From: an uncultured Gammaproteobacteria bacterium | GTDB taxonomy: Bacteria; Patescibacteriota; Microgenomatia; Levybacterales; UBA12049 | Assembly: GCA_964646925.1 (NCBI GenBank) | Contig: CAZYIC010000001.1 | Span: forward strand, 1 to 58,743 | Length of the DNA: 58,743 bases | Direction of reading: 5' to 3' | Shown here: positions 8,949 through 44,076 of the stretch, piece by piece | How the letters are laid out: every line of letters begins with the position of its first letter | Position numbering within the stretch: position 1 is the first letter of the stretch | Program-made: the position numbers and the translations under genes | Notes under the pieces: generated by a model | The model's input: only the letters and a program-made list of their open reading frames with translations | Told to the model about the DNA's origin: nothing | Databases searched by the model: none

Positions 8949-9010
8949 CTAATTATATATCTTTATGATCCTTCGACAATAGCTCAGGATCATACTGAAT
9001 TAGCTGAAGT

Positions 9011-9985
9011 ATGAACATCCAAACAGTCATCTTTCACGACTTGTCTTTTATAAATGTTTCCCGCCCGACTGACTTTGAGATTAAATACCTCAAGAACAAC
9101 TACTATTTTAATCCTCTCAATCTGGATGACTACATGCATAGAACTCAGATACCCAAAATAGAAAATCACAAAAAATACGATCTTGTTGTTCTCCGCTTTC
9201 CTCTTTTTAGCGAAAACGTCCCTCAAAATTCCCATCAATACGGAGTGCGTCTTCCCGCCTTCCACCCTCATGTCAAAAAAAGAAGGCTGATGAGCAGCTA
9301 TGTAAACTTTTTTATTTCAAAGGAGTATGTTATCGTACTTCACGCCGGGGAACTGCCCGAAATTAATCGTATTTTTAGCCTTTGCCAAAAAACCCTTCAC
9401 AGCCGCACCGAATATATGTCCCAGGGGCCAGCATTTCTTGCTTATAAAATTATAGATGCTTTAGTTGATGATTGTTTTCCCGTAGTTAATGAAATTACTT
9501 CCACAATAGATCGGATAGATAAAGACCTGGAAGATAAACAATCCCGAAAAACCTTGGAAGACATCTCGGGAACCAGAAGAAATTTAGTTGTATTTCATAC
9601 AATGATTAAGCCTATTTTGCCTCTTTTTAATCAACTTCAGGAAGGAAAATATGAAAAACTCAATGGCACCATGCAGTCTTTCTGGGGCAACATTTTAGAT
9701 CATTTACGAAAAATATTAGATAGAATTGAAGATAATCAGGAGCTTATTGAAGGAATATCCGAAAGCAATGAGTCTCTTCTTTCATCCTATTCCAATCAAA
9801 TCATTAAAGTTCTCACTATCTTTTCGGCGATTATTCTGCCTTTAAATTTGCTGGCAAGTATTTACGGGATGAACCTAAGGCTTCCATTCGCAGATGACCC
9901 GTTTGTCTTCTGGATAATTATGCTTTTGATGGTTTTGGGAGCAATTATTATGCTTTTTATTCTTAAGCTTAAGAGATGGTTCTAG
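9011..9985 (+). CDS. corA: CorA magnesium/cobalt transporter
   Basis: 324 aa. C-terminal two TM segments with the YGMN motif (ASIYGMNLRLPF). Confidence 0.92.
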   Translation: MNIQTVIFHDLSFINVSRPTDFEIKYLKNNYYFNPLNLDDYMHRTQIPKIENHKKYDLVVLRFPLFSENVPQNSHQYGVRLPAFHPHVKKRRLMSSYVNFFISKEYVIVLHAGELPEINRIFSLCQKTLHSRTEYMSQGPAFLAYKIIDALVDDCFPVVNEITSTIDRIDKDLEDKQSRKTLEDISGTRRNLVVFHTMIKPILPLFNQLQEGKYEKLNGTMQSFWGNILDHLRKILDRIEDNQELIEGISESNESLLSSYSNQIIKVLTIFSAIILPLNLLASIYGMNLRLPFADDPFVFWIIMLLMVLGAIIMLFILKLKRWF

Positions 9986-21813: not shown

Positions 21814-22140
21814 ATGGTAGAAAGAAATTTTGACCTTGGATTTCCACAAGGACCTAATGGGATAAGATTGGTTCCCGTTAAAGGCCAGATCGGCAAAACC
21901 GAGGAAATGGACACTACGACTCCTTATGGAAGAGCACAACAACTAGTAGACGAGCTTAGATTTATGGCTGGTACGCTAGGAACAAGTGTTTCATATCAAG
22001 CTACAACTCCTATTGTTCCCGGAAATAATAACTCAAAAAAAGATAATCAAAAAATTCGCAACGGAGGTCTTAGTCCTTTTTATGAAAGACAATACCGGGG
22101 TCCTCAAAAAGCAAAACTTCATCCCTTACGAAAATTTTAA
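21814..22140 (+). CDS. Hypothetical small protein
   Basis: 108-aa ORF. No recognisable motif. The 3' end overlaps the recJ stop by 4 nt. Confidence 0.35.
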   Translation: MVERNFDLGFPQGPNGIRLVPVKGQIGKTEEMDTTTPYGRAQQLVDELRFMAGTLGTSVSYQATTPIVPGNNNSKKDNQKIRNGGLSPFYERQYRGPQKAKLHPLRKF

Positions 22141-23978
22141 AAAGATCTTAAATCCTTAATTTTCAATTGTAGTCTTTTGTTTCCATTCCCGCCTGCAAAT
22201 GCCTGAGCATTGCTCTGGCGGGCAGGCCATTCATTTTCGTCAATTGTATAAACAATATCAATCTTTTCGCCGGTTTTAATTTTAGAAAACATTTCCCCCA
22301 TCCCAAACCCAATTGCATCAAATACAGTATCGTCATTCTGAGGCACAGCCGAAGAATCTCTAGATCCTTCACTTCGTCCTGCGCCAGACGGTGCGGGACT
22401 TCGTTCAGGATGACACACTAATCGCATTTTTAGGTGCTTTCCTTCTGCGCCAACCATTCTTATCTCTTCAATCACAACGCCTTTACTTATAAATGTTGGC
22501 TCCGGATTTCCCATCCCAAAAGGAGCAAGTTTCTGCAAAGCTTCATACAAATTGACGTCAACGAAAGATAAAGGCAACTCACAATCAATCTTTAAGCTCC
22601 GGGTCAGCAAGTCTTCGTTAAGCATTAATTCCGCTTTTCTCTCCAAGGCTTTTTGAAGTTTTAGAAGTTTTATTGTCTCAACTGTAAATCCCGCTGCCAT
22701 CGGATGTCCTCCGGCATCCACCAAAAATTCTGAGGCGCTTCTGATAAATTCAATTATGTTAAATCCGCTCACAGACCTAGCCGATGCTTTGCTAAATTTT
22801 TTCCCAATTGAAACTACTATTGTAGGTCTATAGAATTCTTCAACCATTTTTCCGGCAACAAGACCGATAACCCCCTGCCCATAACTTTCATGAGAAATAA
22901 ATAGTAAATTCTTTAGCTTCTCTTTTTTCATTTTTACATAATCTTTCGCGTGCAAAACTGCCTGCATTGTTAAATCTTGTCTCTCCCTGTTCGTACTCCC
23001 TAGCAAACGGGCAAGATCTTCTGCTCTTTTTTTATTATTAGTGCAAATCAAACGCAAGCTATCCATTGCATATTCCAGTCTTCCCATTGCGTTAACACGG
23101 GGCGCAATTAGATGTCCTATTTCATAAACTCCGATTTTTTCTTTTTCCAAACCAGCTTCTTTGAAAAGCTCCAAAAGCCCTACCCGTTTTGTTTTCCTCA
23201 AAGCTTCCAAACCAAATTTTAATAATGTCCTGTTTGCGCCCTTCAAGGGAACCAAATCCGCAACCGTCGCAAGCGCTACCAACTCTAAATGTTTCTCGTT
23301 GTCATGCTGAACTTGCTCGCCTCGCTGCGAAGCGGGTTTCAGCGTCTCCTTTTTATTGAGCTGAAATGAATTCAGGATGACACAGGAGAAAAGCCAAGCG
23401 ACTCCGGTTCCGCACAACTTGGTCGTATGAACAATTGCAAGAGCCTTTGGTTTTGTTTTTGAAGGAACGTGGTGGTCGGTAATAATTACATCTATTCCCT
23501 GTCCGTTAGCAAAATCAACTGCCTTATTTGCAACAATCCCATTGTCTACGGTAATTATCAAACCGCAATTTTTAATTTTTAATTTTAAATTTTTAATTCC
23601 TGTCTCCGACAGGCCGTATCCTTCATCGATTCTATGTGGAATATACGGCATAACCTTTGCGCCAATTGAATTGAGGGTCTCCCAAAGAATCGCCGTGCCG
23701 CAAATTCCATCAACATCATAATCTCCAAAAACTACAATTTGTTCCTTGTTCTTAATTGCATTTTGAATCCTCGAAATTGCCTTATTTAATTGCTTTTTAT
23801 TAATTCCAACGCTATTAATATTTACATTTTCAATTTTTGGATGCAAAAACTCCTCAATCTCTCTTTTTGTCTTTATTCCCCGATTTTCTAGAATAATTTT
23901 TATTAGATCGTCTGTATTGAATTTTGCCTGCCCGCCGAAGCCTCGGCGAAGGAGGGAATTTTGAATTTTGAATTTCAC
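22137..23978 (-). CDS. recJ: Single-stranded-DNA-specific exonuclease RecJ carrying repeat-derived in-frame insertions
   Basis: DHH motifs (FGDYDVDGICGTA, ITDHHVP), DHHA1 (GGHPMAAG) and a C-terminal OB region. The start is uncertain. I chose GTG 23978 because the ATG at 24011 would overlap the divergent cca start. Confidence 0.9.
   Translation of the reverse strand: MKFKIQNSLLRRGFGGQAKFNTDDLIKIILENRGIKTKREIEEFLHPKIENVNINSVGINKKQLNKAISRIQNAIKNKEQIVVFGDYDVDGICGTAILWETLNSIGAKVMPYIPHRIDEGYGLSETGIKNLKLKIKNCGLIITVDNGIVANKAVDFANGQGIDVIITDHHVPSKTKPKALAIVHTTKLCGTGVAWLFSCVILNSFQLNKKETLKPASQRGEQVQHDNEKHLELVALATVADLVPLKGANRTLLKFGLEALRKTKRVGLLELFKEAGLEKEKIGVYEIGHLIAPRVNAMGRLEYAMDSLRLICTNNKKRAEDLARLLGSTNRERQDLTMQAVLHAKDYVKMKKEKLKNLLFISHESYGQGVIGLVAGKMVEEFYRPTIVVSIGKKFSKASARSVSGFNIIEFIRSASEFLVDAGGHPMAAGFTVETIKLLKLQKALERKAELMLNEDLLTRSLKIDCELPLSFVDVNLYEALQKLAPFGMGNPEPTFISKGVVIEEIRMVGAEGKHLKMRLVCHPERSPAPSGAGRSEGSRDSSAVPQNDDTVFDAIGFGMGEMFSKIKTGEKIDIVYTIDENEWPARQSNAQAFAGGNGNKRLQLKIKDLRSF
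22332..22415. repeat. Family-1 palindromic element (GTCATYCTGA...TCAGRATGAC), copy a; 84 bp, in frame inside recJ
   Basis: Terminal inverted repeats GTCATTCTGA / TCAGGATGAC. Encodes CHPERSPAPSGAGRSEGSRDSSAVPQND. About 80% identical to the reverse complement of copy d (40435-40514). Confidence 0.8.
23301..23382. repeat. Family-1 palindromic element, copy b (subtype with ATGCTGAA/TTCAGCAT hairpins), inside recJ
   Basis: GTCATGCTGAA...TTCAGGATGACA. Encodes VILNSFQLNKKETLKPASQRGEQVQHD. Related to the reverse complement of copy c, but with an extra GC-rich insert in the first hairpin loop. Confidence 0.7.
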
Positions 23979-24005
23979 ACTGTGATATACTATATCAGGA
24001 TGACA
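23926..24005. repeat. Composite repeat patch: family-2-like GC-rich unit, ATTTTGA heptamers, and a family-1 half-site
   Basis: GCCTGCCCGCCGAAGCCTCGGCGAAGGAGGG (compare 44050-44070), then ATTTTGA ATTTTGA, then TCAGGATGACA. Forms the recJ N-terminus on one strand and the cca ATG on the other. Confidence 0.55.
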
Positions 24006-25373
24006 CAACATATTCCACAACAAATTATCAACACCTACAACAAAATAAAAGAGGCTAATTTTGAAATTTATCTGGTTGGAGGGTGTGTTAGAAATCTTCT
24101 CCTCAAAAGAGATGTAAAAGACTGGGATATGACTACCAATGCAACTCCGGAACAGATTCTCAAGATTTTTAAGGATGGATTTTATGACAATAAATTCGGT
24201 ACAGTGGGCATTCCCCTCCATACTACAGTGTATGGAAGGTTGATTGTTGAGATTACAACTTTTAGAACAGAGACCGGTTACAGCGACAAAAGAAGACCCG
24301 ACAGTGTTTCCTGGGGAAAATCCATCGAGGAAGATCTTGCACGCCGCGACTTTACCATCAATTCCATCGCAATGAAACTAGACGCTCGACGCTCGACGCT
24401 AAGCACTAGCGTAATTGATCCTTACAATGGTCAGCAAGATATCAAGAATAAATTAATCCGTGCGGTTGGAAATCCGAACGAAAGATTCAAAGAAGATGCC
24501 CTAAGACTTTTAAGAGCGATAAGAATTGCAGCGGAATACCAGTTCATAATTGAAGAAAAAACATTCAAAGTTATTCAGGAAGATGCTCCATTAATTAAAA
24601 ATATTTCGGGAGAAAGAATCAAAACAGAATTATTAAGAATTTTATCAACAGATTTTACATATGACGGAATTATACTTTTAAAAAACTCCGGACTCTTGAA
24701 ACATATTCTTCCTGAACTATTGGAAGGAATCGATGTCTCCCAAGTAAGACCCGGACGACATCATACAACCGATGTTTTTACCCATAACATAATGTCATTG
24801 AAATTCTGTCCGTCAAACGATCCAATAGTAAGATTCGCAACCCTCATTCACGACATTGGCAAACCAAAAGCAATTGGCAAAGATGAAAATGGTCTTGTAA
24901 CTTTTTATAATCATGAAATAGTCGGAGCGAGAATAGCAAATGAGATTTGCGAAAGGCTGAGATTTTCCAAAAAAGAAAAAGACAGGGTTTACAACTTAAT
25001 TAGATGGCATATGTTTACTGTCGATGAAAAAGTAAGTGACGCCGGAATAAGAAGATTTATAAGACGAGTTGGAGTTGAAAATGTAAAAGATGTAATGGAT
25101 TTAAGAATTGGAGACAGGCTTGGAGGAGGAACCCAAACAGCAGAAAGCTGGAGACTTAAACTTTTCAAAAAAAGAATTGAAGAACAATTACAACCTGCCC
25201 CCTTCTCAATAAATGATTTAGCAATTGACGGAAATGACATTATTAAAGAATTAAATATTAAACCCGGACCAAAGATTGGCGAAATTCTCCAAAAACTTTT
25301 CCTCGAAGTCGACGAAGATCTCTCAAAAAACAATAAAGAATTCTTACTCAAAAGAATAAAAGAGCTTGATTAG
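24000..25373 (+). CDS. cca: CCA-adding tRNA nucleotidyltransferase with HD domain
   Basis: YLVGGCVRNLLL...DWD head domain and HD domain (LIHDIGKP). I placed the start at MTQHIPQQ (ATG 24000); the track start is a TTG extension. Confidence 0.9.
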   Translation: MTQHIPQQIINTYNKIKEANFEIYLVGGCVRNLLLKRDVKDWDMTTNATPEQILKIFKDGFYDNKFGTVGIPLHTTVYGRLIVEITTFRTETGYSDKRRPDSVSWGKSIEEDLARRDFTINSIAMKLDARRSTLSTSVIDPYNGQQDIKNKLIRAVGNPNERFKEDALRLLRAIRIAAEYQFIIEEKTFKVIQEDAPLIKNISGERIKTELLRILSTDFTYDGIILLKNSGLLKHILPELLEGIDVSQVRPGRHHTTDVFTHNIMSLKFCPSNDPIVRFATLIHDIGKPKAIGKDENGLVTFYNHEIVGARIANEICERLRFSKKEKDRVYNLIRWHMFTVDEKVSDAGIRRFIRRVGVENVKDVMDLRIGDRLGGGTQTAESWRLKLFKKRIEEQLQPAPFSINDLAIDGNDIIKELNIKPGPKIGEILQKLFLEVDEDLSKNNKEFLLKRIKELD

Positions 25374-29256: not shown

Positions 29257-29325
29257 GTCATCCTGAATTTATTTCAGGATCCCATTTTTTTGGGAACTAG
29301 ATGCTGAAATGAATTCAGCATGACA
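29257..29325. repeat. Family-1 palindromic element, copy c (two-hairpin subtype), spanning the secD 3' end and the secD-secF spacer
   Basis: GTCATCCTGAA-TTTA-TTTCAGGAT ... ATGCTGAA-ATGA-ATTCAGCATGACA. Encodes the last ~17 codons of secD (MLNSFQHLVPKKMGS) and its TGA stop. Confidence 0.75.
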
Positions 29326-40434: not shown

Positions 40435-40514
40435 GTCATTCTGAACGAAGGGACGCACCGTCTGGTGCATCCCGAAGTGAAGAATCCAGATCCTTCGTTT
40501 CACTCAGGATGACA
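40435..40514. repeat. Family-1 palindromic element, copy d; 80 bp between ugd and rfbD, supplying the rfbD stop codon
   Basis: GTCATTCTGAACGAAG-[GGACGCACC GTCT GGTGCATCC]-CGAAGTGAAG...CTCAGGATGACA. The rfbD ORF ends LSS-TGA inside the terminal repeat. Confidence 0.8.
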
Positions 40515-41367
40515 ACTGGGACTTAATCTTTCTTAATCCTTCTTCGAACGTCCTCATCTTAACACCCAATCTAGCTATTTTATCATTTTTCAATGCTAAT
40601 TGAAAAGGCCTAGGCGCGCGGTCATTGAAAAAAATTGATCTGGTAGTTTTATTGATTTTGGACTTGTCTAAATGAAATTCATCTGCTATTAAATTCGCAG
40701 CATCAAAAGGCGTTGAGCTTTGGCTTCCCACACAATGAAATATGCCTTGCAAATTATTTTTAATTAAGACATTAATTGCAAGGGCAATATCGTCAATAAA
40801 GGTTGGCGTAAAAATATGATCAGAAACCGCAGCAACAGGATACCCTTTTTGCAATTGCTGGAGAATCGCACGGACAAAATCCGGCCGTCCAAACACCGCT
40901 CTATAAGGAGAGGCAATTCTGACAATTATCCAAGGAGTTCTTAATCCCCGGACAATTTTCTCCCCTTCATATTTTGTTTTCGCATACCAATTGATCGGAT
41001 TTTGAATGTCTTCCTCAGCATATCCGCCGGCTGGCGGATTTTCTCCGTCAAAAACAAAATCCGTAGAAATATAGATTAATTTTTTGTTTGTCTGCCCACA
41101 TGCTTCAGCAACATTTCTTGCCCCTTCTACATTAACTTTCCAGGCTTCCCCCTCAACTCCCAAAGGTTTATCTTTTTCGCATCCGTCAACATCTGTTTTT
41201 GCCGCTAAATGAAGAATAATTGAGGCGTCAGAGGATTTAATTTTTTCAGAAATTTTATTGCGATCCGTTATGTCAACATCTGAAGATTCAAACTCGTATT
41301 TATCTTTAAGAAGTTCAACAATCCTTGACCCGACTAATCCATTTAGCCCCGTCCCCAAAACCTTCAT
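40504..41367 (-). CDS. rfbD: dTDP-4-dehydro-6-deoxyhexose reductase (RfbD-like)
   Basis: 287 aa. The GxxGxxG variant GTGLNGLVGSR and the overall RmlD length and pattern. Confidence 0.75.
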   Translation of the reverse strand: MKVLGTGLNGLVGSRIVELLKDKYEFESSDVDITDRNKISEKIKSSDASIILHLAAKTDVDGCEKDKPLGVEGEAWKVNVEGARNVAEACGQTNKKLIYISTDFVFDGENPPAGGYAEEDIQNPINWYAKTKYEGEKIVRGLRTPWIIVRIASPYRAVFGRPDFVRAILQQLQKGYPVAAVSDHIFTPTFIDDIALAINVLIKNNLQGIFHCVGSQSSTPFDAANLIADEFHLDKSKINKTTRSIFFNDRAPRPFQLALKNDKIARLGVKMRTFEEGLRKIKSQLSS

Positions 41368-44031: not shown

Positions 44032-44076
44032 GCTTCGAGGCATGACCCTCCGAAGCCTTGGCGAAGGACGGGTCAT
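44032..44076. repeat. Family-2 GC-rich palindromic element, copy b
   Basis: GCTTCGAGGC-ATGACCCTCCGAAGCCTTGGCGAAGGACGGGTCAT. The stop codon of ORF 44073-44336 lies inside the GGGTCAT arm. Confidence 0.65.

Follow-up and report, generated by a model that had tools for sequence, protein, structure and literature searches.

How did a GC-rich palindrome come to lie in frame in recJ of a member of Candidatus Levybacteria, and why is it tolerated there? The question is raised by a DNA stretch of 58,743 nt, hereafter the window, to whose positions all coordinates refer. An earlier note had described an 84-bp palindromic segment in recJ, here called element A, and had interpreted it as a mobile palindrome that had entered a surface loop of the protein in frame. 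We consider it likely that element A is a doublet of repetitive extragenic palindromic (REP) units, similar to a REPIN, that belongs to a widespread family with the architecture of CGTC-tagged REPs, spreads at the DNA level, and is tolerated in RecJ as a translated loop insert. The family is present in many phyla, and its units are hairpins backed by compensatory base changes.

Element A is an in-frame doublet in recJ

The recJ gene occupies positions 22137-23978 of the minus strand and encodes 613 amino acids plus a stop, as supported by its open reading frame (ORF), Pfam and PDB matches, orthologues, and synteny. The mechanically derived ORF (22137-24221, 694 amino acids) is over-extended; orthologues and their gene calls place the start at the GTG codon at 23978. 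The protein contains the Pfam domains DHH, DHHA1, and RecJ_OB, and is matched by solved RecJ structures in the PDB with E=1e-69. The invariant DHH and GGGH residues of its catalytic motifs are intact.

Element A spans positions 22332-22415 and corresponds, on the minus strand, to RecJ residues 522-549. It is composed of two inverted REP-like units without a spacer, one at 22331-22360 (plus strand) and the other at 22361-22415 (minus strand). The plus strand of 22332-22414 reads GTCATTCTGA...TCAGGATGAC; with base 22415 added, the element makes up 28 codons of the minus strand, which encode the peptide CHPERSPAPSGAGRSEGSRDSSAVPQND between KHLKMRLV and DTVFDAIGFG. The GC content of the element is 0.548, against a window mean of 0.365. 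The pattern GTCATYCTGA-N50-80-TCAGRATGAC matches the window twice, at 22332 and at 40435-40513, and not once in 100 dinucleotide-preserving shuffles. The coordinates, codon count, and GC enrichment reported in the earlier note were thus reproduced, and so was its placement of the segment in the C-terminal oligonucleotide-binding (OB) region, since the insert is inside the RecJ_OB domain. Alignments to the solved RecJ structures end exactly one residue ahead of it. The element folds with a 10-bp terminal stem, and one of its ends carries CGTC, the other TGTC. An intein, an intron, and programmed bypass were ruled out as identities of the segment by its length of 84 nt, the lack of catalytic features, and the frame-preserving, stop-free nature of all the inserts.

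Further copies, on whose existence the earlier note had made its interpretation depend, are present in the window, which holds at least four doublets of the family, designated A, B, C, and D. Element B is intergenic (40435-40514) and is, as previously recognized, a copy of element A in the inverse orientation. Their identity is 75% when they are aligned inversely and 59% when they are aligned directly; shuffled interiors reach 57% on average and 64% at most. The terminal TGA of element B is the stop codon of the minus-strand ORF 40504-41367 (window 40504-40513). The loop of one arm of element A holds a nested 22-nt GC-rich hairpin (22377-22398, minus strand), identified from sequence and fold and flanked by the direct repeat CGAAGT at 22371-22376 and 22399-22404 in the minus-strand reading. 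This nested module is common to A and B: in both, the 22-nt loop hairpin is bracketed by a direct repeat of 5-6 nt (CGAAG or CGAAGT), and the outer stem bases are swapped in B (GGA..TCC for TCC..GGA). Elements C and D surfaced on allowing one mismatch in the terminus pattern.

The repeat unit is a hairpin found in many phyla

Each element is a pair of inverted units of about 28 nt, and each unit runs from a YGTC head through a 21-nt hairpin to a 3-nt tail. The consensus arm of subtype T1 is YGTC-ATYCT-GA-RC-GNA-GY-GA-AGRAT-CTC. Subtype T2, ATYCTGAA-N5-TTCAGRAT, has an 8-bp stem and a 5-nt loop. The layout of T1 is also 8+5+8, with two G.A mismatches, and its hairpin combines a tandem G.A with a GNA triloop closed by a C-G pair. 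GCGAAGC is a classic, very stable DNA mini-hairpin. In 126 copies the GTC of the head is invariant and is preceded by T in 75% and by C in 21%; the tail is mostly CTC, with CCA in a minority of arms. Extra GC-rich hairpins often sit in the arm loops.

A scan for the termini, with one genome per species, identified at least 120 loci in Bacteroidota, Acidobacteriota, Chloroflexota, Omnitrophota, Patescibacteria, Proteobacteria, Firmicutes, Verrucomicrobiota, and other phyla. The termini alone were estimated to yield some tens of matches by chance; nearly all listed loci share about 17 more bases that the pattern does not specify. The Y at position 6 pairs with the R of GAAGRAT in 219 of 224 arms, even where the two arms of an element differ. 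In 61 distinct arms, 96% of the cells are paired; the observed values were not attained in any of 500 shuffles, and pairing collapses in every slid register. Two of the pairs have changed on both sides (CG in 34 and UA in 24 arms; GC in 39 and AU in 19). The pairing and covariation within arms indicate that each arm is a hairpin of its own.

A covariance model trained solely on arms from other phyla, R1, finds both arms of element A (E=2e-5 and 1.3e-6), element B (E=9e-8 and 5e-6), and element D (E=2e-7 and 3e-5), and recovers just one arm of element C, weakly (E=0.45). It also matches three arms in recJ of the closest orthologue, at locus L121. There is no R1 match in the 15-kb loci L122 and L123, where recJ is without elements.

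RecJ orthologues carry patchy inserts at fixed sites

We compared the window RecJ with 120 Levybacteria orthologues that are 60-73% identical to it. Their basal length is about 545-557 amino acids, and insert blocks occur in a patchy manner at about five fixed sites. At the position of element A, called site A, 106 of the 120 orthologues have no insert block of at least 8 residues, so that the orthologue alignment proposed in the earlier note shows the segment to be missing from most relatives. Family-type inserts, xCHPE...Q(N/H)D, are present at site A in 12 of the 120 and differ in their interiors. A segment with conserved amino acids, which had been named as a sign against insertion, is not seen in these carriers, as all that they share is the peptide ends CHPE...QND/QHD, dictated by the DNA termini.

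The orthologue of L121 (P0002) is the sister of the window RecJ in a neighbour-joining tree, and carries a T2-type element exactly where the window recJ has a T1-type one. The closest RecJ is 73% identical to that of the window. The syntenic loci L122 and L123 have no element at site A, but the sequence KCQMSNVKFS, encoded by (AAATGTC)3. The 12 carriers are scattered in a near-random manner over the tree and require at least 10 changes, which points either to high turnover at the fixed sites or to poor resolution of the tree. The occurrence of different subtypes at site A across Levybacteria corresponds either to recurrent insertion or to old occupancy with turnover. In this genome, element A does not represent one recent event.

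The segment could instead be a low-complexity loop that is native to RecJ, specific to the lineage, and expanded in situ, for instance by slippage; its likeness to 40435-40514 would then be coincidental. Orthologue loops are indeed AT-rich with a 7-nt period, such as (AAATGTC)3 at site A of L122, and such loops are therefore intrinsically unstable. However, element A is 75% identical to its intergenic copy, its GC content is 19 points over the background, and units of identical sequence are shared by genes and phyla that are unrelated. The match of both its arms to a model trained on other phyla brings this explanation close to refutation, and we regard it as very improbable.

AT-rich heptanucleotide tandem repeats occur in permissive RecJ loops and at the N-terminus (window 23955-23985, site A of L122, and many orthologues). 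They are read in all three frames: (AAATTCA)n gives KFKIQNS and (AAATGTC)3 gives KCQMSNV, and a palindromic RIQNSEFRI is also found. The repeats produce low-complexity sequence with a period of seven amino acids exactly at the sites of REP elements.

About 20 syntenic genes are shared with L121, L122, and L123, and GC-rich insertions are found in recJ only. In a control, the CCA-adding enzyme of 120 orthologues from the same clade, we found 20 insert blocks in 18 sequences, compared with 100 blocks in 64 sequences for RecJ. A repeat-induced chimera in the metagenome-assembled contig has to be considered, since contigs can be joined wrongly at repeats and a lone contig from one sample makes up the window. 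However, the recJ frame is continuous on both flanks of the element, the gene order is that of independent assemblies, and similar elements occupy the same site in independently assembled orthologues. An assembly artefact is thus hardly conceivable.

Some of the insert blocks of the CCA-adding enzyme (...DSGQARMT) resemble another CGTC-type REP. The inserts of P0166, P0169, P0175, P0179, P0196, P0217, and P0226 end in ...DSGQARMT or start with HPESLARG, and imply another CGTC-like REP (~GTCATTCTGGCCTG..), in frame, in a second gene family of Levybacteria.

Predicted effect on the RecJ protein

The AlphaFold2 model of the window RecJ has a mean predicted local distance difference test score (pLDDT) of 84 and a predicted template modelling score of 0.83. 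The only internal segments with pLDDT below 50 are residues 11-17, 211-225, 526-548, and 586-597, which are the four palindromic inserts of the protein. The low-confidence part of element A, residues 526-548, is positioned between OB-fold strands 515-522 and 552-557. Element A is therefore predicted to form a disordered hairpin loop that connects two strands of the OB fold, and the structure prediction recommended in the earlier note agrees with its proposal of an insertion in a surface loop; mobility of the palindrome is suggested by its distribution. The doublets in recJ are in frame and stop-free, and coincide with predicted disordered loops of an otherwise intact enzyme.

Genomic setting of the elements

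In other phyla, the elements are in essence extragenic: 110 of 127 are located outside long stop-free stretches, and the remainder are mostly at ORF edges. In low-GC metagenome loci, 10 of 98 T2 arms are deep inside long ORFs. Real host genes were confirmed by Pfam in all nine genic cases tested: a type III DNA methylase, SecA, a class I aminoacyl-tRNA synthetase, HycI, a MiaB-like radical SAM enzyme, NamZ (exo-beta-N-acetylmuramidase), a solute-binding protein, TatD, and DapF. One reading frame of each arm contains TGA, and the genic copies seen run in the other frames. One metagenome contig (L312:4770-5620) contains five tandemly arrayed repeats, each about 170 bp long and with one T2-type arm in the same orientation.

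These genic copies bear on the possibility that the segment acts in recJ at the RNA level, as a signal for processing, stability, or translation pausing, or by excision from the transcript, in which case the 28 residues would be incidental or never made. The segment has a strong RNA fold (-34.2 kcal/mol, z=-3.1), elements B and D are at the 3' ends of genes, and REPs in general are thought often to act as RNA elements, according to PMC3733652. Against this, every genic copy seen is in frame and avoids the TGA frames, which would be a needless constraint if the segment were excised. Mispairs of the G-T/G-U type show no strand bias (2 T-G versus 3 C-A) and lend no support to an RNA-only role. 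The same element is also found in unrelated genes and in intergenic DNA. The only Rfam matches, in the window at the gathering threshold and in nine canonical loci at the E-value threshold, were tRNAs and sub-threshold look-alikes of microRNA hairpins, and no Rfam family corresponds to the element. We find a role of this kind improbable.

[quoted passage not shown] Their near-perfect inverted termini of 10-11 bp (up to 24 bp in element D), their size of 68-84 bp, and the presence of several copies fit this description. However, no target-site duplication of 2-9 bp exceeded the shuffled-pair null in 126 copies. The arms are individual hairpins whose covariation persists when the left and right arms differ, and single units are also found alone. 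Clustering of all nearby ORFs revealed no recurrent gene, transposase, or REP-associated tyrosine transposase (RAYT) beside the copies in the 120 genome loci listed; the clusters near these loci consist only of ABC ATPases, histidine kinases, and oxidoreductases. A MITE origin is, in our assessment, improbable to a similar degree as the RNA-level role.

The T1 arm is frequent in IMG/VR viral contigs, with at least 120 matches, for an estimated chance expectation far below 1. The T1 unit is nearly absent from collections of isolate plasmids and phages, and is nowhere annotated as a repeat. A synthetic consensus doublet gave no BLAST match in isolate plasmids. BLAST with a natural copy gave none in phages and ten weak matches in plasmids (Planktothrix, Phocaeicola, and others), none of which is annotated as a repeat.

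Among the viral and proviral matches listed (L124-L243), the T1 arms are mostly single, with a partner terminus within about 105 nt in 30 of 151. Recurrent unannotated ORF families without Pfam matches, and a portal protein, are encoded near the listed viral loci. In the Planktothrix agardhii plasmids NZ_LR882964.1 and NZ_LR882951.1, weak matches to the unit occur at several places per plasmid, and fall in genes annotated as an MmeI-type restriction-modification enzyme and a BREX PglX methyltransferase.

Relation to known palindromic repeats

CGTC-tagged REPs (Di Nocera, De Gregorio & Rocco 2013, BMC Genomics 14:522; PMC3733652) are the closest in format to the unit described here. As described in that paper, they include Rickettsia conorii RPE-4 and RPE-6 and Neisseria dRS3, and are composed of a CGTC head, a stem of 8-9 bp starting with A-T and T-A, a loop of 4-5 nt, and a 3-nt tail with the consensus CCA. 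They are mostly inverted dimers, and have no dedicated transposase. Intragenic dimers encode 20-30 amino acids, many of them in replication and repair genes. The present unit shares the GTC-ending head, the stem opening with A-T and T-A (8 bp), the 5-nt loop, and the 3-nt tail, and it too is organized in inverted dimers (four doublets) that lack a recurrent neighbour gene. The Rickettsia palindromic element (RPE) analogy drawn in the earlier note extends to the head, stem, and loop format of CGTC-tagged REPs, RPE-4 and RPE-6 included. The CGTC-1 peptides given there (VIPAKAGI, CHSRESRNP, and ...RND) imply GTCATTCCCGCG..GGGAATC, of which GTCATTC...GAATC is common to the present unit. The heads-outward dimer found here matches that of R. 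conorii RC0378, judging from a by-eye comparison with its peptide SFLRKQES...DSRFRRND in the same source.

The unit differs from the CGTC-tagged REPs in its stem, which is ATYCTGAR and not ATTCCCGC or ATGGCCGGG. Furthermore, in T1 a conserved tandem G.A takes the place of two stem pairs and the loop is a GNA triloop, and both the base preceding GTC and the tail sequence deviate from the CGTC and CCA consensus. The host range of the present unit (Patescibacteria, Acidobacteriota, Chloroflexota, Omnitrophota, Bacteroidota, Firmicutes, and viral contigs) extends far beyond the five phyla named in PMC3733652.

RPE-1 (Ogata et al. 2000 Science 290:347; 2002 Genome Res 12:808; via PMC10969869) is about 100-150 bp long, encodes a conserved peptide of its own, and occurs in Rickettsia only. 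The present element shares with it the palindromic repeat, the in-frame position in unrelated housekeeping genes without inactivation, the predicted location at the protein surface, and a reduced, host-dependent bacterium as host. It differs in size, in its peptide, and in not being confined to Rickettsia, and no sequence kinship with RPE-1 is expected. Element A behaves like an RPE, in that it is in frame, missing from orthologues, and at the predicted surface; this is a likeness of behaviour and no proof of identity.

REPINs have a GTAG head, are vertically inherited and lineage-specific in sequence, and are accompanied by a single-copy RAYT flanked by REPs (Bertels & Rainey 2011, PMC3116915; Nunvar et al. 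2010). The present elements resemble them as inverted doublets of REP hairpins that form one non-autonomous unit, in the lack of target duplication, and in single units that are decayed remnants (PMC3116915). Unlike REPINs, they have a YGTC head and no RAYT beside the copies in the genome loci listed, and the unit is shared across phyla.

Proposed origin of the insertion in recJ

We hypothesize that the elements spread or turn over as DNA, probably via a single-strand hairpin intermediate on which a trans-acting enzyme would operate. An enzyme of the HUH/Y1 type, for which REPs provide the precedent, may be responsible; the elements have no target duplication. Insertions in genes would mostly be lost, and the survivors would be those that keep the frame, avoid the TGA frame of each arm, and sit in permissive surface loops. 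In recJ, the insert would be transcribed and translated to a low-complexity, disordered loop of 28 residues in the OB domain, probably with little or no function of its own. SEGSRDSSAVPQNDDTVFDAIGFGMGEMFSK is an example of a peptide predicted from a translated insert.

Several observations weigh against this explanation. Neither a transposition event, nor an empty-site allele from the same population, nor a mobilising enzyme was seen. With no RecJ closer than 73% identity, any age given to the insertion would be tentative. The different subtype that L121 has at the identical position fits recurrent insertion, and fits in-place recombinational replacement as well. The presence and absence of inserts is almost random on a neighbour-joining tree that is possibly poorly resolved. 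Translation is deduced solely from the frame and the avoidance of stop codons, and, since sampling was restricted to intact ORFs, the argument is in part circular. Finally, the head is TGTC in 75% and CGTC in only 21% of copies, and the tail is mostly CTC, not CCA.

We also consider, as an unlikely extension, that the unit is the recognition hairpin of an enzyme acting on single-strand DNA. RecJ is a 5'-3' single-strand exonuclease; it could act on intermediates of the element, and insertions that modulate RecJ could favour the element. The T1 unit, whose GNA triloop and tandem G.A make it a mini-hairpin of the very stable GCGAAGC type, is conserved nearly base for base from Patescibacteria to Acidobacteriota and is present in viral contigs too. 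In Levybacteria, the same five RecJ loops have been colonised repeatedly, at roughly five times the frequency seen in the neighbouring control gene.

Other elements and hairpins in the window

In addition to element A, recJ contains element C and two smaller GC-rich hairpins, all absent from the earlier note. Element C (23301-23381, minus strand) is an in-frame, 81-bp doublet of subtype T2 that corresponds to residues 200-226 in the DHH domain and encodes VILNSFQLNKKETLKPASQRGEQVQHD. It has a nested 21-bp GC-rich insert at 23316-23336; the L121 orthologue carries the same element without this nested insert. The sequence VILNSFQD...MLKQVQHD occurs at the site of element C in many RecJ orthologues.

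Element D (29257-29324) is a 68-bp T2 doublet at the secD/secF junction. It is a near-perfect hairpin (DNA fold z=-6.7) with inverted termini of up to 24 bp. The final 16 codons and the stop of secD come from element D and replace the C-terminal 5-6 codons. The element is not present at the orthologous secD/secF junction of L121.

The C-terminal hairpin of recJ (22188-22226, minus strand) is 39 bp long, has the form CCCGCC...GGCGGG, and encodes, in frame, residues 585-597 with the sequence PARQSNAQAFAGG. Its GC content is 0.67, and it belongs to a family of small palindromes distinct from that of element A. Related inserts, LARRSLGEGG or PARQSNAQAFAGG at the C-terminal site, are present in 13 of the 120 orthologues. 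The N-terminal hairpin (23928-23954, minus strand) encodes residues 9-17 (LLRRGFGGQ) and is of the same family as the LARRSLGEGG inserts of orthologues, in the opposite orientation; CCGCCGAAGCCTYGGCGAAGG, back-translated from orthologue peptides, matches 23932-23952 exactly. A third copy of the small-hairpin family (CCCGCC...GGCGGG or CCGCCGAAGCCTYGGCGAAGG) is intergenic, at about 44040-44076, and is enclosed by ATGACCC...GGGTCAT. The GC content of the inserts is 0.55-0.76, compared with 0.36 in the window.

A possible solo unit, ATGATCCTGAGCTATTGTCGAAGGATCAT, is located at 8967-8990 (minus strand), upstream of ORF 9011-9985; it has no GTC head, and its model E-value is 0.07. A lone terminus at 23995-24004 was rejected as a chance match, as it overlaps the ATG of the divergent CCA-adding enzyme gene and has a model E-value of 1.3. 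A generic inverted-repeat finder applied to the whole window returned mostly AT-rich chance pairs and was uninformative.

Significance

In a 2024 review of prokaryotic MITEs, insertion in frame is presented mainly as a Rickettsia feature (PMC10969869). Our full-text literature search for the unit sequence, for its three-frame peptides, and for MITEs or in-frame insertion in Patescibacteria returned no relevant report. In-frame palindromic repeats are a known phenomenon, found here in a new lineage, Candidatus Levybacteria of the candidate phyla radiation (CPR). Less ordinary are the near-universal conservation of the unit and the repeated loading of the same RecJ loops.

In-frame palindromes are usually cast as a peculiarity of Rickettsia, together with scattered REPs; here they occur in the CPR, several times in one gene. 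The length variation of CPR proteins and their low-complexity, disordered loops may often be the result of repeat insertions rather than adaptations, and such loops bear on annotation, structure prediction, and phylogenetic alignments. The unit constitutes a nearly universal sequence tag that could be used to hunt for the enzyme that moves CGTC-type REPs. In the RecJ loops, which are occupied again and again, preference for insertion sites may be weighed against tolerance of the insertions, as in a natural experiment.

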